From contig CAZGIU010000001.1 in assembly GCA_964526535.1 (NCBI GenBank), forward strand, positions 1-37,263: a stretch of DNA of 37,263 bases, read 5' to 3'. Positions 29,389-37,263 of this stretch are shown here, one piece after another. Both the position numbers and the translations under genes were made by a program. Source of the DNA: an uncultured Candidatus Saccharibacteria bacterium (GTDB lineage Bacteria > Patescibacteriota > CPR2_A > CG2-30-33-46 > CAZGIU01). Numbering within the stretch: position 1 is the first letter of the stretch; each line of letters starts with the position of its first letter. The notes under the pieces were generated by a model. That model worked only from the letters and a program-made list of their open reading frames with translations. It did not search any database and had not been told where the DNA came from.

Positions 29389-29763
29389 TTATTCCTTTCT
29401 GGCTAAAAAATAAAATTCCAATAATAGAATTGATATAACAAATAAAATACCATCAAAGATATTTAATATTTTAAGGGCTTGCAAGCCCAAAAGACCTACA
29501 AAGGCAAAGGTCACTAATAAAGCTTGACGGAAAGAAACTGTAATATTTTCATAATAATATTCATTGGAAGAAAACCATAACCTTAAATAAAAACCAATAA
29601 TAGTTAAACTCCCCACTAAAGCAAAAAATAAACTACCAAAAAAACTAACAAGTCCCCAGGCACCAGTATTTTTTGGATCAAGATTTAATAATGTTAAAAC
29701 CCAGGCAAGCCAACATAATGCTGTAGAAATAGCTATGCCAATTATATAAGCAGAAAGTGTCAT
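29389..29763 (-). CDS. Hypothetical 4-TM membrane protein (124 aa)
   Basis: Four hydrophobic segments (IIGIAISTALCWLAWVLTLL, GLVSFFGSLFFALVGSLTIIGFYL, ALLVTFAFVGLLGLQAL, ILFVISILLLEFYFL). ATGA overlap with the upstream coiled-coil gene. No family recognised. Confidence 0.55.
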   Translation of the reverse strand: MTLSAYIIGIAISTALCWLAWVLTLLNLDPKNTGAWGLVSFFGSLFFALVGSLTIIGFYLRLWFSSNEYYYENITVSFRQALLVTFAFVGLLGLQALKILNIFDGILFVISILLLEFYFLARKE

Positions 29764-30476
29764 AAGCTTTCTTTTATCTCTCTATCAATTTCTTTTAGGA
29801 CCTTTTGAGCCACTTCAGCATATTTTTTATTCTTTAGTGACTCTCTAATTTCTCTATCACGCTCCTCTAAGTCACGTAATTTTCTGGCTTCCTGCTTAGT
29901 TTCTTCAATCTTTTTTTGAATTAAATCAGCTTTTTCAAAAACTAGTGGTTTGCCCATAAGCTTTCTCTCAATTTCTTTAAGTTCCTGCTCAATTTTATCT
30001 TTTTTGTCCTCTAAAACCCTTAACTGTTCGGAATTTCTTAAGCCCAAGTTAGCAGATATTTTATCTCTTTCTATTAAATTATTCTTGACCCTAACTTTTT
30101 CATCATAACGCATATCCTTCAAACAAATGGGACAGTGGGGATCCGGATCCTCTAAAAGTTTTATTTTAAGATCAAACTCCTGGCTTCTCTTTTTAAGAGC
30201 CTGATTTGATTCTTTTATCTTAGAAATGCTTTCTTTTAGATTATTTAGAAACCTCTCTTTAGAAATTTTTTCTTCTTCAGACTTTTTTATATTAGTCTTA
30301 TCGCTTTTTAAATTATCAAGCTCGATCTCTAAAGAAGAAATTTCATCAATTTTACGCTCAAGGCTTCCTAATTTAAAAGAAATCATTTCCTGTTCCATTA
30401 AAAGCTTGCGCCTTTCCAGGCGGATTGTATCTTCCAGCTCTTTTTTCATTTTTTCCAATTTAGCTAACCAATTCAT
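29760..30476 (-). CDS. Head-less coiled-coil protein with a central CPIC (Rad50/SbcC zinc-hook-like) motif (238 aa)
   Basis: K/E/L-rich heptad-like sequence throughout, interrupted at the exact midpoint by 'EDPDPHCPICLKDM' (Cys115, Cys118). These are the only Cys residues. No Walker motifs and no TM helix. Confidence 0.6.
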   Translation of the reverse strand: MNWLAKLEKMKKELEDTIRLERRKLLMEQEMISFKLGSLERKIDEISSLEIELDNLKSDKTNIKKSEEEKISKERFLNNLKESISKIKESNQALKKRSQEFDLKIKLLEDPDPHCPICLKDMRYDEKVRVKNNLIERDKISANLGLRNSEQLRVLEDKKDKIEQELKEIERKLMGKPLVFEKADLIQKKIEETKQEARKLRDLEERDREIRESLKNKKYAEVAQKVLKEIDREIKESL

Positions 30477-30485
30477 AGTAATATT

Positions 30486-31517
30486 TTACTCCCCAAGTTG
30501 AGGCTTATCAACTTCAGCCACCTCAATCTGTTTCTTTTTGTTATCAGAAATTTTTAAAATGTCTTTATCAACTTTTTTTAATTCTTTATAGGCTTTATTA
30601 TAGGTTGTTACAGTGGTTGATAAATTAGAACCAACTTTTTTAAAGTATTCATCGTAAGCCAAAAGGTGCCTATCTAGATTTTGAACATTTTTAAGAATAT
30701 CTTTGACAGACTCTTCAATTTCCAATGAGCGTAAGCCCTGAAGAACTGTTTGCAAATAAGCAGCAAAAGAAGTTGGTGAAACTATAATTACTCTTTTTTC
30801 TTTAAAGGCATATTCTATTAAATCTCTGGTATTAATCTTAACTGCTCCCACTTGATTTACCAATAAATCATAATAAATACCTTCTGAAGGAATAAACATA
30901 AAAGCAAAATCCATGGTTCCCTCATTTGGTCTGATGTATTTAGCGGTTTCGTCGATTCTATTTTTTAGATCTTGTTTGAAAATTTTCTCAAGTTCTTTTC
31001 GTCTGATTTCTGATTTCTCAGTCATAATTTTATTGTAATTTTCCAAAGAAAATTTTGAGTCAATTGGAATAATTTTCTTATCTTTAACAAAAATTACAGC
31101 ATCAACAATTTGTCCATCTTTAAACTGATATTGAATTTTATATTGACTTGGGTTAAAAAGATTTTTAAGTAAGGCTTCAAGATAATACTCACCTAAAATT
31201 CCTCTTTGTTTCGGATTTTTTAAAATATGCTCTAGCCCCTGAAGTTGTTCGGTAATTCCAACAACCTGTTTATTGGTATCTTCAAGTTTAGTTAATTTTT
31301 CAGTAACATCTTTAATTATGCCAACGGAGGCCGTAAACTGTTCAGTAACCTTCTTATCCAATTGATTTTGAACTTGGGAAATCTGCTGTTGCAACATCAG
31401 AATACTTTGATCGTCTTTCTGTGTTTTGTTAGCATCAATCCTCTTGGTTAAAAAATAAGTCAAGCCAAAAAATCCCGCAGAAATAACTATTATTAAAATA
31501 AGAATATCGCTATTCAT
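30486..31517 (-). CDS. rmuC: DNA recombination protein RmuC (membrane-anchored, 343 aa)
   Basis: N-terminal TM helix 'ILILIIVISAGFFGLTYFL', a coiled coil, 'KQRGILGEYYLEALL', 'VDAVIFVKDKKIIPIDSKFSLENY', 'FAFMFIPSEGIY', and 'VIIVSPTSFAAYLQTV', all characteristic of the RmuC family. Confidence 0.88.
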   Translation of the reverse strand: MNSDILILIIVISAGFFGLTYFLTKRIDANKTQKDDQSILMLQQQISQVQNQLDKKVTEQFTASVGIIKDVTEKLTKLEDTNKQVVGITEQLQGLEHILKNPKQRGILGEYYLEALLKNLFNPSQYKIQYQFKDGQIVDAVIFVKDKKIIPIDSKFSLENYNKIMTEKSEIRRKELEKIFKQDLKNRIDETAKYIRPNEGTMDFAFMFIPSEGIYYDLLVNQVGAVKINTRDLIEYAFKEKRVIIVSPTSFAAYLQTVLQGLRSLEIEESVKDILKNVQNLDRHLLAYDEYFKKVGSNLSTTVTTYNKAYKELKKVDKDILKISDNKKKQIEVAEVDKPQLGE

Positions 31518-31589: not shown

Positions 31590-32516
31590 CTAAAAAAGCA
31601 CGAAATTTGATTTTTTTAGTTTTTCAGAATCTTTTTTAATTATCTCTAAAAGCTCATCTATTCTTTGATAACTTTTTTCATAATCAGACTGTATAGCGGA
31701 AGAATCTATAGAGACAAAAGGATTATCGATACTTGAAAGAGCCTCTTGATTACCATTCTCAATGGCCAACGATAACTCTTTAACTGTTTTTAAGACTTTA
31801 TCGTGAGTTTCTTTCATACTTTGAGGTACTTTTAATCTCTCTAAAGCTTCTTGCCACCTTTTAACTGGATTTTTAAGAGCTACTAGGCCTTGCTCTTTAT
31901 TTAGGGCAGATAAGTCTTTATTGTTAAGCTTACGAGATTCATTTAAAGCGTCTCTGAAGAAATCTAAAGCACTATTAAACAAATCAATACTATAAATACC
32001 TTCTTCTGAGAGTTTTTCCCCAAGCTCCAGATACTCCTTAATATCATTTGATAATTGCTGAGTTTTTTTTGGAGAAGTTAAATTAGATAGAACATAAAGA
32101 TTAGCCTCTGCTTTAGTTTTAATTTTGTCATATATTTCTCTTTGATCTTCTAAATCTTTAGTTAAGGAATATAGCTTATTCTCATCAAAATTAACTGCAT
32201 TATCATAAATTTCTTTATTATCAAGACCAGTTAACCAAACCTCAGAAGCTATAATAATTTCATTAACTTTTTCGGAATAGAAAACCACCCTAGAACCATA
32301 CCAAAAACCATATAAAACAATTCCAAGAATTATTAAGACAAAAAAACTTATTATAATAACTATTTTTTTTATATTACTTGGAGGTAAACTATTGTAAGAA
32401 CTGCTGTTAAAACTTGGTTGCATCTGGCCAGTATTGGCCTGGTTAAGTTGAGTAGATTGATTATTGTTAGGATTTATTTGCCTAGAAAGACCATCAAGGT
32501 TTAAATTATCGGTCAT
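31590..32516 (-). CDS. Single-pass membrane protein, paralog B (308 aa): N/Q/S-rich N-terminal tail, TM helix, helical ectodomain, C-terminal KKSNFVLF
   Basis: Paralogous to 32600-33475. Shared motifs are 'YGFW.GS', 'KEY..L', 'P..(A/M)K(D/E).HDK(L/V)(I/L)K', 'NPF/DPF' and terminal 'LKK(S/T)NFVLF'. The start is set at ATG 32516 (MTDNLNLD), preceded by AAGGAGAAAA exactly as in paralog A. The track's TTG start at 32552 overlaps a TATAAT box. Confidence 0.6.
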   Translation of the reverse strand: MTDNLNLDGLSRQINPNNNQSTQLNQANTGQMQPSFNSSSYNSLPPSNIKKIVIIISFFVLIILGIVLYGFWYGSRVVFYSEKVNEIIIASEVWLTGLDNKEIYDNAVNFDENKLYSLTKDLEDQREIYDKIKTKAEANLYVLSNLTSPKKTQQLSNDIKEYLELGEKLSEEGIYSIDLFNSALDFFRDALNESRKLNNKDLSALNKEQGLVALKNPVKRWQEALERLKVPQSMKETHDKVLKTVKELSLAIENGNQEALSSIDNPFVSIDSSAIQSDYEKSYQRIDELLEIIKKDSEKLKKSNFVLF

Positions 32517-32566
32517 TTTTCTCCTTGCTTTACTTATCATATTATACAACAAAAAAAATAAAAAAA

Positions 32567-32588
32567 TGCCCCAAGCTAGCTTGGGGCA
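32567..32588 (-). terminator. Strong intrinsic terminator between the two paralogs
   Basis: 22-bp perfect palindrome TGCCCCAAGC|TAGCTTGGGGCA (GC-rich 9-bp stem). On the minus strand it is followed by TTTTTTTATTTTTTTT. It lies 11 nt after the paralog A stop. Confidence 0.85.
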
Positions 32589-32599
32589 CCTCCTTGTTA

Positions 32600-33475
32600 T
32601 TAGAATAAAACAAAATTGGTTTTTTTAAGTTCTGGGGCTTCCTTTAGAATTTCATCTTTTAGAGATTTAATTCTATTCTCTTTATCTTCGAGATATTTAG
32701 ACATTTCGTCAAAAGGGTCTTCTATATCATTAAAAATATCGTAGTTACCATCCCCTAAGGCTTTGGTAACATCTCCTACCAATTTGATTAATTTATCATG
32801 AACATCTTTGGCACTTTCAGGGGGAGTAATTTTTTCAAGTTCATCTAACCAATTATTAAACATCTTCTCCATCTCAACCATCATTTCATCCTCTGAAGAT
32901 GAGGAATACATTAAATCAGACATACCTTCAACTACACCAACAGTAGCTTCCATAATTTGAATTCCATATTTAGAGGATTCTCCGAACTCTTTAGCTAATT
33001 GGGTGTATTCTTTTAAATTCTTGCCTAAACCAGAAGCCTTGCCTGGTACCCCTTTTTTAGCAACTTCTTGATAATACTTATCAATTTCGGTAGCAAATTC
33101 TTCTGTCTCATCTTTTAATTTTTTAAGCTCAGCATCAAAAGAACCACTGGCAAACTGATCAAAACTTAAAGAACTTAAATCACTATTCTTTAAAACTTCT
33201 ACCTTCTTTTCAATGTCATTAACAATTTCTTCTGCTCTAGTAGCATAAGAAGCTACTTGCGAACCATTCCAAAAACCATAGCCAACAACAGAAATTAACA
33301 AAACAACTGCTACAACAATTCCAATCAAAATATTTTTATTAGGACCTGAGGAACCACTGCTTGGCATGCCTTGTGGTGGCTGACTGCCAGGTGGCATAAA
33401 ACTAGAATCCTGAGCTGGGGGCATTGGCGCCTGAGTTGGCTGTTGAGGCACCTGGGGATTTAAATTTTCCGCCAT
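32600..33475 (-). CDS. Single-pass membrane protein, paralog A (291 aa): P/Q-rich N-terminal tail, TM helix, helical ectodomain, C-terminal KKTNFVLF
   Basis: 'MAENLNPQVPQQPTQAPMPPAQDSSFMPPGSQPPQGMPSSGSSGP' followed by TM helix 'ILIGIVVAVVLLISVVGYGFW'. Shine-Dalgarno AAGGAGAAATT before the ATG. No family recognised. Confidence 0.6.
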   Translation of the reverse strand: MAENLNPQVPQQPTQAPMPPAQDSSFMPPGSQPPQGMPSSGSSGPNKNILIGIVVAVVLLISVVGYGFWNGSQVASYATRAEEIVNDIEKKVEVLKNSDLSSLSFDQFASGSFDAELKKLKDETEEFATEIDKYYQEVAKKGVPGKASGLGKNLKEYTQLAKEFGESSKYGIQIMEATVGVVEGMSDLMYSSSSEDEMMVEMEKMFNNWLDELEKITPPESAKDVHDKLIKLVGDVTKALGDGNYDIFNDIEDPFDEMSKYLEDKENRIKSLKDEILKEAPELKKTNFVLF

Positions 33476-33489
33476 AATTTCTCCTTTTG

Positions 33490-36003
33490 TTAATTATTTT
33501 TTATATTATATAGTAAATCTTGTTTATTAACAACAAATTTCTCACCTTTTTTGATTTCATCTTTAATAATTTTATCAGCTAAAAAGTTTTCCAAAATATC
33601 CTGAATAGCCCTTCTCATCGGCCTGGCACCAAACTCAGGCTGATAACCTTTTTCAATCAAAATATTTAAAACATCTTTGTTAATTTCAATTAAATAACCC
33701 TTGCTTTCAAAATCTTTTATCATTTTAGCAATTATATTTTTAGCAATTTGTCGTAGATTATCTTGAGTAAGCGGTTTAAACATTACAACCTCATCGAAAC
33801 GATTTAAAAACTCTGGCGTAAAAATACCTTTTTTCTGAAGAGACTCAAAAACCTCTTCTTTAAGATCTTGCCAATCTCTATTTTTAGCTAATCCCTCTCT
33901 TATCATATTAGCCTCAGCATTAGAAGTTGTAATAATAATTGAATTTGTAAATTTAACTATATTGCCCATGCCATCTTTAGTGTAGCCTTCATCAAAAATT
34001 TGAAGAAAAATATTGAGAATATTTTTATGAGCTTTTTCGAGTTCATCTAATAAAATTACAGAAAAGGGTTTTTGCTTAATTTCCTTAACCAATTGCCCGC
34101 CCTCAAGCTCATCTAAACCTGTTTGTTTTTGACCCAAGAAATCTTTAATTGAGGAGGGTTCTTGATATTGATTCATATCCATTCTAATGATAGCTTTTTC
34201 ATCACCAAAATAAGACTGAGCTAAGGTTTTAGCAACTTCTGTTTTACCAACTCCTGTCGGACCTAAAAACAAGAAAACTCCAATAGGCCGAGCCGAATCA
34301 TTAACCTGAGCTCTCTTCCTTTTAAGAGCGTTAACAATAGCCGAGATGGCCTCATCTTGGCTTACTACTCTTTGGTGCATAACCTCTTCTAACTTCAATA
34401 AAGAATTTTTTTCTTCTTTTGCAACTGTAGCAACTGGGATCGATAAAATACCTTCACAAACTCTACTAACTATCTGTTTATCAATTACATCCAAGCTATC
34501 TCTTTTAGCGCAAGAAATTACATTTTCCATTAAGTCTATGGCTTTGCGAGGAAATTCTCTATCATCAATAAATTGATCAGCTATCCGATAAATTTCCTTT
34601 AAAGCATTGTAGGTTAGTCTAACTTGATATTTACTGAAAAAATAAAGGCTTAAGTCAGCCAAAACCTTAATAGTTTGATCTTTGGTTGTTGGCGGTATCT
34701 TAATATTTTCAAATAAACCTGCAAAAGAAGATTTAGGCGAAAGATAGGATTCATAATTTCTTTGAGTAGTAGCGCCAATTACCCTAATCTCACCCGACTG
34801 AAGATAAGGACTTAAAACTTCGGTGGCATCCACAGCCCCAACCTTTCCATTGCCACCTTGAAATAAAGTATGAATGTTGTCGATAAATAAAATTATATTA
34901 CCAGCCTGGGCTGCATCTTGGAGAACCATTATAAGCCTTTGTTGAATTTCTTGAGGATTCTGAACTCCAGCCACTAAAGCTTCAGTGTTAAGCTGAATAA
35001 TTCTCTTGTGTTTTAACTCTTTTGTGGTTTCATAACTAAAAAGCTTAGCAGCTAAAGCATTAACAATGGTTTTTTTGCCTGAACCCGGCTCACCAATTAA
35101 CAAACAATTATTATTACCGGGCTTAGAAAGTACAGTTTCTATCTGAGAAATAATATGTTTTCGGCCAACTACATAAGATTCATCAAAAAATTTCGGACCA
35201 TTAATATGCATACCATAGATATCTAAATATAAGGTGTAACCATAAGCCCAGTCTTCACCAATACCAGTAACATTAGTTTTAAGTTTTTCAATTAAAGGTT
35301 TTTGATATTTAGCTTTATTAAAAACTGAGTTAGCCCAAAATAAGATATTCCTAATATCATTTAATTCTAATTCTAAAGTAGCGCCAAAGCTATCAAAATC
35401 AGGTAAAAGTTTAATAAAACCATAAAAAATATCAGCTGTCGTTAATCTTTTTTCTCCTTCAGCCAAAGCACTCTCTATAGAGTTATCTAAAATCAGACCT
35501 AGAGATTCTTGACCATTTGAAGCTGAAATCTGAGTTAAGATTATTGATAGATGACTATCGGTAACACCCATTTCGTTTAAAGCAAAAATTACTCTTTTAG
35601 ATGAAACTATGTCAGAAAAAAGTTTACCCAAATCACAGTTATTAAGATCATACTTGCCAAAAATTCTGGCTACTTCCAAATCAGCTATGGCAAAAACATT
35701 AAAGTTATTTTTGTCTGGTGAGATTTCCCTTAACCTCTCTTCTTGGCGAAAATATAATCTTAAAAAGACATAAATAATAAAAGATTTTACTCCTAAAAAT
35801 CCTAAAAATTTAAAAACATAGATCAGGGCTTCAAAATTAACCAGCTTTAAATAATCAAGCAAAATTAAAATATATGAAAAAATACCTAATAACCAAATTG
35901 CCTTTAAAACAATGAAAATATTCTCAGATTTAAAATAATGCCACAAATTAGCAGTCTGAATATAACTATAATCTTTTTGATAATCTATTTGATATTTGCT
36001 CAT
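33490..36003 (-). CDS. Membrane-anchored Hsp100/Clp-like double AAA+ protein (837 aa); D1 degenerate, D2 intact, no M-domain
   Basis: aa 27-85 are hydrophobic (2-3 TM helices). Clp_N-like repeats follow. D1 reads 'LLIGEPGSGKKTIV...ILFIDNIHTL...VIGATT...FPRKAIDLM'. D2 reads 'FLGPTGVGKTE...VILLDELEKAH...ITTSN...EFLNRFDEVVMF...GARPMRRAI'. Confidence 0.85.
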   Translation of the reverse strand: MSKYQIDYQKDYSYIQTANLWHYFKSENIFIVLKAIWLLGIFSYILILLDYLKLVNFEALIYVFKFLGFLGVKSFIIYVFLRLYFRQEERLREISPDKNNFNVFAIADLEVARIFGKYDLNNCDLGKLFSDIVSSKRVIFALNEMGVTDSHLSIILTQISASNGQESLGLILDNSIESALAEGEKRLTTADIFYGFIKLLPDFDSFGATLELELNDIRNILFWANSVFNKAKYQKPLIEKLKTNVTGIGEDWAYGYTLYLDIYGMHINGPKFFDESYVVGRKHIISQIETVLSKPGNNNCLLIGEPGSGKKTIVNALAAKLFSYETTKELKHKRIIQLNTEALVAGVQNPQEIQQRLIMVLQDAAQAGNIILFIDNIHTLFQGGNGKVGAVDATEVLSPYLQSGEIRVIGATTQRNYESYLSPKSSFAGLFENIKIPPTTKDQTIKVLADLSLYFFSKYQVRLTYNALKEIYRIADQFIDDREFPRKAIDLMENVISCAKRDSLDVIDKQIVSRVCEGILSIPVATVAKEEKNSLLKLEEVMHQRVVSQDEAISAIVNALKRKRAQVNDSARPIGVFLFLGPTGVGKTEVAKTLAQSYFGDEKAIIRMDMNQYQEPSSIKDFLGQKQTGLDELEGGQLVKEIKQKPFSVILLDELEKAHKNILNIFLQIFDEGYTKDGMGNIVKFTNSIIITTSNAEANMIREGLAKNRDWQDLKEEVFESLQKKGIFTPEFLNRFDEVVMFKPLTQDNLRQIAKNIIAKMIKDFESKGYLIEINKDVLNILIEKGYQPEFGARPMRRAIQDILENFLADKIIKDEIKKGEKFVVNKQDLLYNIKNN

Positions 36004-36004
36004 A

Positions 36005-36376
36005 TTAAATAAAAATATAAATAAATGATATTAAAGCAATAGCCGGCATAAAAAACCAAAAAACCAAGCTAAAAGCCAAAAATAAAATATAGAAAAATAG
36101 AAAAACTAAATAGACGATAATCAAGAAAAATCTTAAAACAAAACCAACTAAGCGGGAAATAAGGGTATCAGCTAAGGATTGAAAAAAATTATCAAGACCT
36201 CTGCCTTGCTGACCAACAATTCTTTTCCAGGGTTTAAAAATATTAGTTATTAAGTCAATCGGCGAAAAATAATTTGAAGTATGTATAAAATAGGCCGACA
36301 AAAAATCGAACAAAGAAGCAATTCCCTTTGAATACCACCACCTAAATAATGTAGGTAAAAAAGTAAAATATACCAT
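36005..36376 (-). CDS. Hypothetical polytopic membrane protein (123 aa)
   Basis: An aromatic-rich N-terminus 'FRWWYSKG...FKPWKRIVGQQGRG' is followed by very hydrophobic helices (FFLIIVYLVFLFFYILFLAFSLVFWFFMPAIALISFIYIFI). The stop lies 1 nt from the Clp-like ATG. Confidence 0.5.
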   Translation of the reverse strand: MVYFTFLPTLFRWWYSKGIASLFDFLSAYFIHTSNYFSPIDLITNIFKPWKRIVGQQGRGLDNFFQSLADTLISRLVGFVLRFFLIIVYLVFLFFYILFLAFSLVFWFFMPAIALISFIYIFI

Positions 36377-36408
36377 TTAAATTACTATAACTCATTTAAG
36401 GCTAAAAA

Positions 36409-37179
36409 TTAACTAACAAAATTAAGATAATTTATCCTTTTAAATCTAAGAGGCTTTGCAACCACAATAAACGGGAAACTTTCTATTAAAGTATTAAATT
36501 TATTAACGGATTTATTATAAAATTTCCTAGAATATAAAATTCTCTCCTCAGTATCGAAATAAGCTTCAGATAGCTTCTTAAAGCTTTCAGAGGCTCTAAT
36601 TTTGGGATTACTTTCTAAGATTATAAAAACTTCGCTTGAGACACTCTCATTTTTTATTTGACTCGAACTAGAAACAAAATCTTTTTTAGCCCTACTTAGG
36701 GAAATTAATGTCTGAAGCTCTTTTTCATACGAAGCAAAGGCTTTAACCACATCTAACATCTGAATTATCAAGTCATGCCTTCTTTTGAGTTCTGCGTCAA
36801 TATTACTTAAAGAATTTTTGACCCTCTGCCTTAAAACAACCATCCTGTTATACATCGATAATATTACAGTCCCTAAAATTAAGGTGTTCCCAAATGTTAA
36901 CAAAAGCCCCATCAATTCCTTGCTAAACGAAAAGAGATATTCTGCTGCAAAAACAGAAAGAGTAAAGGCAATGGCAATAATAAGATGAATGGAATAAAGA
37001 ATTAACTTTCCTCTATAGAAACTATCAACATACTGGCTTCTGTTATCTCTACTAACTATTAAGGGGTGATTAGTATCTTCTGAAATTACCAACTTACCAT
37101 TCTTCTTTTTTATAACTCCATAAAAAAAGGCATTAATATTTGGTCTTAAAACATACTCGCTTTTCCTATACTTTTGCAT
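36409..37179 (-). CDS. lemA: LemA-family protein with extra N-terminal domain and two TM helices (at least 256 aa; frame stays open to the window edge)
   Basis: LemA core: 'LRQRVKNSLSNIDAELKRRHDLIIQMLDVVKAFASYEKELQ...', 'ESNPKIRASESFKKLSEAYFDTEERILYSRKFYNKSVNKFNTLIESFPFIVVA'. The 28 codons upstream of ATG 37179 (37180-37263) contain no stop, so the true start may lie outside the window. Confidence 0.8.
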   Translation of the reverse strand: MQKYRKSEYVLRPNINAFFYGVIKKKNGKLVISEDTNHPLIVSRDNRSQYVDSFYRGKLILYSIHLIIAIAFTLSVFAAEYLFSFSKELMGLLLTFGNTLILGTVILSMYNRMVVLRQRVKNSLSNIDAELKRRHDLIIQMLDVVKAFASYEKELQTLISLSRAKKDFVSSSSQIKNESVSSEVFIILESNPKIRASESFKKLSEAYFDTEERILYSRKFYNKSVNKFNTLIESFPFIVVAKPLRFKRINYLNFVS

Positions 37180-37263
37180 ACCGTACCTTATACCTAAAAA
37201 CTTTTTATCAGATTCTTCACCGTAGACCTGTCTAAATAAAACTTGTTCAGTATTAATTTCACT

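Follow-up and report, generated by a model that had tools for sequence, protein, structure and literature searches.

A widespread and apparently undescribed pair of a membrane-anchored Hsp100 variant and a small membrane protein in Patescibacteria

Five membrane-protein genes at the end of a Saccharibacteria contig

Which of the closely packed membrane-protein genes at the end of a contig from an uncultured Candidatus Saccharibacteria bacterium belong together? The contig (C1 of a 567-kb, 91-contig assembly) was analyzed over its entire length of 37,263 nucleotides, hereafter called the window, and its last part (31590-37263) carries five consecutive minus-strand open reading frames (ORFs). 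In the direction of transcription these are an atypical LemA gene that runs off the contig, the gene of a 123-residue membrane protein (p123), the gene of a transmembrane (TM)-anchored Clp-type ATPase (TM-Clp), and two genes, here paralog 1 and paralog 2 of a family termed par, whose products end in NFVLF. A reading made from the sequence alone had proposed that all five products form a quality-control or remodelling system for membrane proteins. Of this proposal, only the co-location of p123 and Clp turned out to be conserved in relatives. The stretch thus probably consists of three independent things lying side by side, with p123 and TM-Clp as its only conserved unit.

ORF calling reproduced the five genes at the coordinates given below and the gaps of 32, 1 and 14 nt between LemA, p123, TM-Clp and paralog 1, all as read before, and a hydropathy scan found membrane segments in five of five products, in agreement with the earlier view that all are membrane-associated. 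The packing itself is uninformative, because gaps of this size are the norm in this genome, as the sequence-only reading had already cautioned: over 440 same-strand neighbor pairs the median gap is 8.5 nt, and 66% of the gaps measure at most 32 nt, 57% at most 14 nt and 38% at most 1 nt. Away from TM-Clp, the genome also encodes a canonical ClpC (contig C22) and ClpP. The features of the two central genes are the following.

36384..36389, minus strand: TATAGT, a -10-like box 7 nt upstream of the p123 ATG; candidate leaderless-type promoter
36005..36376, minus strand: p123, a 123-aa all-helical membrane protein; presumed partner or subunit of TM-Clp
33490..36003, minus strand: TM-Clp, 837 aa; membrane-anchored variant of the class-I Clp/Hsp100 proteins
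35752..35913, minus strand: N-terminal TM hairpin of TM-Clp, aa ~31-84 (hydropathy scan; helices 27-51 and 61-90 in the AlphaFold2 model)
35269..35706, minus strand: Clp N-domain fold, aa ~100-245 (AlphaFold2 model and Foldseek)
34489..35175, minus strand: D1 AAA+ module, degenerate, aa 277-505 (alignment to Thermus thermophilus and Escherichia coli ClpB)
33514..34473, minus strand: D2 AAA+ module with intact ATPase motifs, aa 511-830

p123 and the TM-Clp ATPase

The smaller partner is a compact protein with a C-terminal hydrophobic stretch of about 48 residues in the hydropathy scan. Its AlphaFold2 model, with a predicted local distance difference test score (pLDDT) of 91, comprises a helix (6-37), a loop with the invariant motif FxPWKR, and a second helix (61-122); the fold is not AAA-like and has no match in the PDB at E <= 0.001. 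Across 38 sequences nine positions are invariant, including W13, F37-S38 and F47-x-P-W-K-R52, and neither p123 nor its 37 relatives yielded a match in Pfam, NCBIfam or PADLOC. An origin by duplication of the TM region of Clp itself was considered and rejected, as hhalign returned a probability of only 2%.

A word-based homolog search with p123 retrieved only two relatives, and a profile search was used instead. Run over 1.84 billion representatives, it delineated a family of 1,552 clusters at 50% identity, most of them with members of 120-135 residues and a few with members of ~770-825 residues. Some records are labelled 'Gammaproteobacteria', 'Chlamydiae' or 'Limnocylindria'; the genomes in question measure 0.8-1.8 Mb and the labels are doubtful, but it is not certain that the family is confined to Patescibacteria. 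In a sample of 401 genomes of the phylum, taken evenly from across it, a hidden Markov model (HMM) of p123 was positive in 175, and the p123-Clp pair is retained in 146 of 319 genera, in both cases nearly always as a single copy.

The linkage of the two genes was strongly supported wherever we looked, p123 and Clp being adjacent or fused in every locus examined. With the N-terminal 280 residues of Clp as query, orthologs were found in eight relatives of different families, and in all eight a protein of 122-133 residues with a hydrophobic C-terminus is encoded immediately 5' of Clp. Likewise, in 58 of 58 loci from named genomes of the candidate phyla radiation (CPR), covering Saccharibacteria, Paceibacterota, Berkel-, Zambryski-, Nealson-, Shapiro- and Woesebacteria and others, p123 either immediately precedes Clp or is fused to it, nine ORF-calling artefacts having been resolved. 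In about 20 genomes of the 401-genome sample the p123 match falls within an open frame of 690-930 codons, and these frames are genuine fusions, in which the p123 module occupies residues ~2-120 and Clp follows in frame. A first pass over 91 fetched loci gave 32 fused, 48 split and 11 ORF-calling cases; nine of the latter were checked and are split, two of them with a gap of ~0.5 kb and a small ORF. Hence, about one third of the fetched loci are fused, but the sampling was partly enriched for fusions. When all neighbors in 90 loci were clustered, no other family recurred: the commonest occurred 11 times, and a position within two genes of the pair, on either side, was reached by no family in more than six loci. 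As a separate observation, four fused-form loci (L024, L027, L031 and L032) share, next to the fused gene, a divergently oriented gene for a 613-636-aa protein with 11-13 TM segments, accompanied by one for a protein of ~385 aa.

What do the fusions imply for p123? As the two proteins can exist as a single polypeptide, p123 would be an obligate, stoichiometric membrane subunit of the ATPase and not its substrate. For the same reason, its C-terminus, and hence the region with the invariant W, FS and FxPWKR residues, is expected to reside in the cytoplasm.

The expression signals are in agreement with a two-gene unit. Two further loci (L044 and L045) show TATAAT, 7 nt and the p123 ATG in the same geometry as the window, and in L045 a terminator after the NUDIX gene and then TTGAAC precede the box. 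Due to this -10 box of its own, the transcription unit would start at p123 and not at LemA. A Shine-Dalgarno (SD) sequence is missing ahead of both p123 and Clp, and the Clp ATG follows the p123 stop after 1 nt, so that Clp is probably made by re-initiation.

For the ATPase itself, Pfam recognizes the domains AAA (300-414), AAA_lid_9 (441-500), AAA_2 (572-739) and ClpB_D2-small (745-824), and no peptidase domain; the best sequence matches in the PDB are ClpB, ClpC and ClpA. PADLOC matches to the defence proteins DolB, PDC-M37B and TRIP13 span only the generic D2 AAA domain and were therefore given no weight as a sign of a defence function. When residues 1-285 are modelled with AlphaFold2 (pLDDT 87), a helical hairpin precedes a helical domain, and the top 50 Foldseek matches of this model in the PDB are without exception Clp/Hsp100-type N-domains or chains containing one: ClpC, ClpC1, ClpA, Hsp104 and relatives, two being the C-terminal domain of ClpC2. 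The probabilities range from 0.85 to 1.0, with TMt values of ~0.5 or above for isolated domains. The assignment as a Clp N-domain is one of fold only, as Pfam Clp_N is not detected in TM-Clp. The best-conserved non-catalytic motif of the family, GIGxDWxxGYTPxLxxY, marks the junction between this domain and D1 (35211-35267; Clp aa 246-264), and it may make contact with the invariant FxPWKR loop of p123.

The two AAA+ modules have met very different fates. In alignment to ClpB, D1 of the window TM-Clp carries GKK in Walker A, where GK[T/S] is expected, DN in place of DE in Walker B, and, aligned without gaps, QNP in the pore loop instead of KYR. Among 85 members of the family, D1 retains its Walker B Glu in only 17 and the T/S of Walker A in 26, and its loop contains an aromatic residue of any kind in nine. 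In D2, by contrast, the GKT of Walker A, the DE of Walker B, the sensor-1 N, the Arg finger and the sensor-2 R are each present in 85 of 85 members. The D2 pore loop shares none of this constancy. It reads TGLD in the window, where GYVG is expected from the gapless ClpB alignment, and in the family it is hypervariable, with deletions of up to seven residues, no conserved residue, and an aromatic residue in 21 of 85 members. Furthermore, TM-Clp is devoid of an M-domain, T. thermophilus ClpB residues 397-511 having no counterpart, and after sensor-1 of D2 there is neither an insertion nor a motif resembling the ClpP-docking [LIV]-G-[FL] loop. In the same alignment, the genome's own ClpC carries KYRG, GYVG and a VGF loop.

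A glimpse of the possible physiological importance of the pair comes from published transposon sequencing (Tn-seq) data on Southlakia epibionticum (Wang et al., 2023, Table S1; PMC10633639). Gene SEML1_0701, annotated as hypothetical (384 bp, 127 codons), overlaps SEML1_0700, an 'AAA family ATPase' (2,583 bp, 860 codons) with AAA_2 and ClpB_D2-small and no Clp_N. Both were scored as non-essential in passages 1 and 2 and with a growth deficit in passage 3 (NE/NE/GD), the normalized reads falling from 4124 to 2517 to 1638 for SEML1_0700 and from 258 to 157 to 51 for SEML1_0701 (PMC10633639). LemA of this organism (SEML1_0902) lies 185 kb away and is non-essential throughout (NE/NE/NE; PMC10633639). 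There thus appears to be a mild and concordant fitness cost to losing the pair.

Could the pair nevertheless be a decaying, functionless remnant of ClpB or ClpC in a reduced genome, as the loss of the D1 catalytic residues and of the pore loops might suggest? This has to be set against the complete invariance of the five catalytic positions of D2 and of nine residues in p123, the retention of the pair in nearly half of the genera, nearly always in one copy, and the concordant growth deficit of the apparent Southlakia orthologs. We regard the chance of such decay as practically negligible.

The neighboring LemA and NFVLF genes

The genes on either side of the pair have histories of their own. 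Their features are the following.

36409..>37263, minus strand: 284 codons from the 3' end of an additional, atypical LemA gene that runs off the contig; GIDE-like region, two TM segments, LemA domain
32600..33475, minus strand: paralog 1, 291 aa; bitopic, with a P/Q-rich cytoplasmic tail and one TM segment
32560..32595, minus strand: intrinsic terminator after paralog 1; 16-pair stem with six GC pairs, then a T-run
32521..32546, minus strand: signals of paralog 2; TATAAT (32546-32541) and AAGGAG SD (32526-32521)
31590..32552, minus strand: ORF of paralog 2; likely start at ATG 32516, 308 aa from there

Pfam and the hydropathy scan upheld the description of the upstream gene as a LemA with an extra N-terminal region and two TM segments. 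Its LemA domain (aa 152-281) scores with E 6e-27 and 94.7 bits against a cut-off of 26.2, and the C-terminal 130 residues also match MamQ, a magnetosome protein, more weakly. GIDE (PF12483) is weak on the window part (aa 24-81), with 21.6 bits below the cut-off of 23.6. At the end of another contig, an open 174-codon ORF (C33:4995-5518) encodes two TM segments and the start of a GIDE-like domain; it directly follows a NUDIX gene, and in relatives NUDIX precedes p123. By itself the C33 part has no GIDE match, but a hypothetical join of C33 and C1 reaches 26.0 bits with a match spanning the junction. Probably, the two contigs are adjacent and the LemA ORF continues into C33, in which case the full gene would, as far as can be told from these pieces, probably be a GIDE-like::LemA fusion of at least 458 residues. 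With the LemA family (PF04011, including MamQ) it shares the C-terminal LemA domain. Canonical LemA proteins, however, measure ~160-200 aa and have one N-terminal TM segment, whereas the window copy, taken together with the C33 ORF, would have at least 270 extra N-terminal residues, further TM segments and the GIDE-like region. All 35 database homologs are canonical LemA proteins of 160-197 aa that cover about half of the query, none with a GIDE::LemA architecture, and a literature search returned nothing relevant on LemA with GIDE, DUF2207 or HtpX.

Is this gene tied to the pair? In a relative that is 93% identical in nucleotide sequence at p123/Clp, the order is NUDIX, 102 nt, p123, Clp; LemA is absent, and the homology ends 14 nt upstream of the p123 ATG, so that LemA is an insertion/deletion polymorphism between close relatives. 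The slot upstream of p123 is occupied by DUF2207 in a 60-70% relative and in genome G002, and by an ABC-2 permease in G003. LemA occurs in 387 of the 401 genomes, mostly as one copy of ~190 codons. The present genome has two, the window copy being the second, and among 90 loci this window is the only one in which LemA adjoins p123-Clp. In a hand check of 17 genomes with both genes on one contig, LemA never lay less than 34 kb from p123. The LemA copy is therefore supernumerary, placed in a variable slot between NUDIX and p123. The sequence-only reading had noted that LemA genes often stand beside membrane-associated stress or proteostasis genes. This holds for the other copy in this genome but not for the window locus: on contig C15 (267-1734), a canonical LemA (184 aa, one TM) is followed after 13 nt by a 299-aa Peptidase_M48 with four TM segments, which is HtpX-like with a HELSH motif (Pfam E 4e-33).

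On the other side of the pair, the paralogy proposed for the two NFVLF proteins was confirmed by full-length alignment (26% identity, E 6e-30), and they share the C-terminus NFVLF and one TM segment each. Paralog 1 ends in KKTNFVLF, has a helical outer domain of ~220 aa, and is preceded by a strong AAGGAG SD; no terminator separates it from Clp, with which it is probably co-transcribed. A terminator and a promoter ahead of paralog 2 were recognized again on inspection of the sequence, and the start of this gene is put at ATG 32516 because an AAGGAG SD precedes it; paralog 2 arose as a tandem copy of paralog 1 and is served by a promoter of its own. Neither protein gave anything meaningful in Pfam, NCBIfam or PADLOC, and an HMM of the par family finds solid matches in only ~19 of the 401 genomes.

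The conservation of par and Clp does not run in parallel. A par gene directly follows Clp in the window, in L044 and in G394; in G002 it lies one gene further, after a CorA Mg2+ transporter (L013, G002:C73, 1084-2010; Pfam E 2e-48), an insertion that further indicates that the position of par is not functionally constrained. In G003 (L014, G003:C29, 4251-4960), a par pseudogene sits beside an intact p123-Clp pair: it lacks both a start and a TM segment, is interrupted by a stop codon and is frameshifted near its end. Reciprocally, G001, which belongs to the same order, has par followed by RmuC, a coiled-coil protein of 238 aa, a 124-aa protein with four TM segments and PheS on an intact contig, and its genome lacks p123 and Clp altogether, on this contig as elsewhere. 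The RmuC to PheS block occupies 29389-31517 in the window and is syntenic in G001, G003 and G394, so the adjacency of par and Clp would be inherited with it. Distant par genes have unrelated contexts. One distant member (L110, G053:C1, 5692-6693) has an N-terminal Zn_Ribbon_1 domain (Pfam E 6e-8) in place of the P/Q-rich tail, which implies an N-in topology, so that the conserved end, K-x-[ST]-x-F-x-[FY], faces the exterior of the cell. The NFVLF paralogs are thus clade-restricted bitopic surface proteins that are gained and lost independently of Clp. The demand for neighborhood conservation across relatives, with which the five-gene proposal had come, consequently divides the stretch: p123 and Clp stay together everywhere, and LemA and both paralogs are scattered or non-adjacent.

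We nevertheless have to weigh a number of points against this separation and against the evidence on which it stands. DUF2207 or GIDE::LemA occupies the upstream slot in three of six close relatives, which may exceed coincidence, all the more as DUF2207 and GIDE-type membrane proteins are often encoded beside LemA, and the C33-C1 join that underlies our view of the LemA gene is hypothetical. Five genomes belonging to two families (window, L044, G002, G003 and G394) have a par gene after Clp, counting the G003 remnant, and with no terminator between Clp and paralog 1, a lineage-specific functional link is possible. The count of 175 p123-positive genomes may miss divergent members, and SEML1_0700 and SEML1_0701 appear to be family members by size, overlap and domain content, not by alignment. 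Finally, non-aromatic loops could still grip a substrate.

These points favor two wider arrangements to different degrees. The first is the original one, in which all five genes would constitute a dedicated quality-control system for membrane proteins, with the disordered tails as handles or adaptors and LemA and p123 as accessories. It draws on five membrane proteins encoded on one strand with small gaps, on the lack of a detectable terminator from LemA to paralog 1, and on the LemA-associated families found in the upstream slot of three of six close relatives. Yet such gaps are ordinary in this genome, the 93%-identical relative does without LemA, linkage of LemA to the pair was seen neither in the remaining 89 loci nor among the hand-checked genomes of the 401-genome sample, a promoter of its own precedes p123, and par and Clp have been lost reciprocally. 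Moreover, the NFVLF end is predicted to be extracytoplasmic from the zinc-ribbon member, and pore loops to pull on a 'handle' are not conserved. We therefore consider this system highly improbable.

The second is a lineage-specific three-gene unit, in which, within this order and in G394, an NFVLF protein was recruited as client, adaptor or output of p123-Clp and is expressed together with it. Here, the 14-nt gap and the missing terminator in the window, and the par genes directly after Clp (window, L044, G394), nearby (G002) or as a remnant (G003), are what one would expect. However, the shared synteny down to PheS can explain the adjacency by descent, par survives in G001 although the pair is gone and is dead in G003 although the pair is intact, p123 is missing in 11 of the 19 genomes with solid par matches, and in four of the eight genomes having both, the genes are on different contigs. 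Such a unit is unlikely, if less so than the five-gene system.

A probable membrane-anchored Hsp100 machine and its possible mode of action

How, then, might the pair of p123 and TM-Clp work? With the class-I Clp/Hsp100 proteins TM-Clp has in common two AAA+ modules, AAA_lid_9, ClpB_D2-small and the Clp-type N-domain fold; the best sequence match of its D2 is T. thermophilus ClpB (403 bits), and its overall length matches that of ClpA. It differs from them by the TM hairpin, by a small membrane partner that is either obligate or fused to it, by the degenerate Walker A/B motifs of D1, and by the conservation of neither pore-loop tyrosine. Compared with ClpB/Hsp104 it lacks the coiled-coil M-domain in D1, and compared with ClpA, ClpC and ClpX the ClpP-docking loop. 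FtsH and Msp1 resemble it in combining an N-terminal membrane anchor with a cytoplasmic AAA+ ring; they rely, however, on aromatic pore loops, and FtsH also on an M41 protease, neither of which is present or conserved in TM-Clp.

An analogy in outline is offered by Torsin, a membrane-associated AAA+ protein of the eukaryotic endoplasmic reticulum and nuclear envelope that is related to Hsp100 D2, lacks aromatic pore loops and has a small TM partner, LAP1 or LULL1. This is not meant to suggest that the partners are homologous. Torsin consists of only one AAA module, whose Arg finger is supplied by the partner, whereas the Arg finger of TM-Clp is its own in all 85 members; TM-Clp furthermore has a second, dead ring and an N-domain, and p123 is not AAA-like in fold.

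As a whole, we hold the following to be the likely explanation, with appreciable room for doubt. p123 and TM-Clp would be one machine with its own -10 box, the ATPase beginning with a TM hairpin and a Clp-N-fold domain, continuing with a D1 capable at most of nucleotide binding, and ending in the conserved D2 motor. The ring, presumably a hexamer, would carry 12-24 TM helices. It would not thread polypeptides in the manner of ClpA/B/C, FtsH or Msp1; we infer this because both pore loops are hypervariable and mostly non-aromatic and because M-domain and ClpP loop are absent. ATP hydrolysis in D2 would instead probably serve as a conformational switch, similar to Torsin, whose target would be either the membrane helices of the machine itself or a partner bound to the N-domain.

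The obvious competitor is a threading unfoldase or extractor of the FtsH, Msp1 or ClpB kind with non-canonical loops, for which p123 would be the membrane adaptor. It could call on the fully conserved D2 motor, the retained Clp N-domain fold, the membrane anchor and the 21 of 85 members with some aromatic residue in the D2 loop. But this loop varies in length, by deletions of up to seven residues, as well as in sequence, D1 would have neither catalysis nor loop aromatics to contribute, and characterized translocases depend on an aromatic pore-loop residue; to our knowledge, every characterized Hsp100, FtsH or Msp1 translocase needs one. The FtsH/Msp1-type extraction suggested by the sequence-only reading presupposes such loops, which the TM-Clp family does not conserve. 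That the ring threads proteins after all is doubtful, and probably it does not.

One may also imagine the non-threading switch as a machine of a new type spread across the Patescibacteria, in which a D2 motor scaffolded by the dead D1 moves a crown of 12-24 TM helices, contributed by the ring and by p123, to gate or remodel something in the membrane, with NFVLF proteins or neighbors of the LemA/DUF2207 type as clade-specific outputs. We put this forward as a tentative extension that is rather improbable in its entirety.

Literature searches returned no description of a membrane-anchored CPR Clp, and the p123-Clp pair is apparently an undescribed and widespread Hsp100 variant, which nearly half of the Patescibacteria sampled possess. 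The label under which TM-Clp proteins are filed hides what sets them apart: the lack of ClpP docking and of substrate-gripping loops, and the constant small membrane subunit. For the locus described here, attention narrows from five genes to two, with LemA and the NFVLF proteins dropped as candidate parts. If the proposed mechanism is true, this Hsp100, with its motor intact but a conserved pore loop in neither ring, would depart from the accepted model of hand-over-hand threading, and as the pair is apparently present in the genetically tractable Southlakia epibionticum, the question could be directly tested there.

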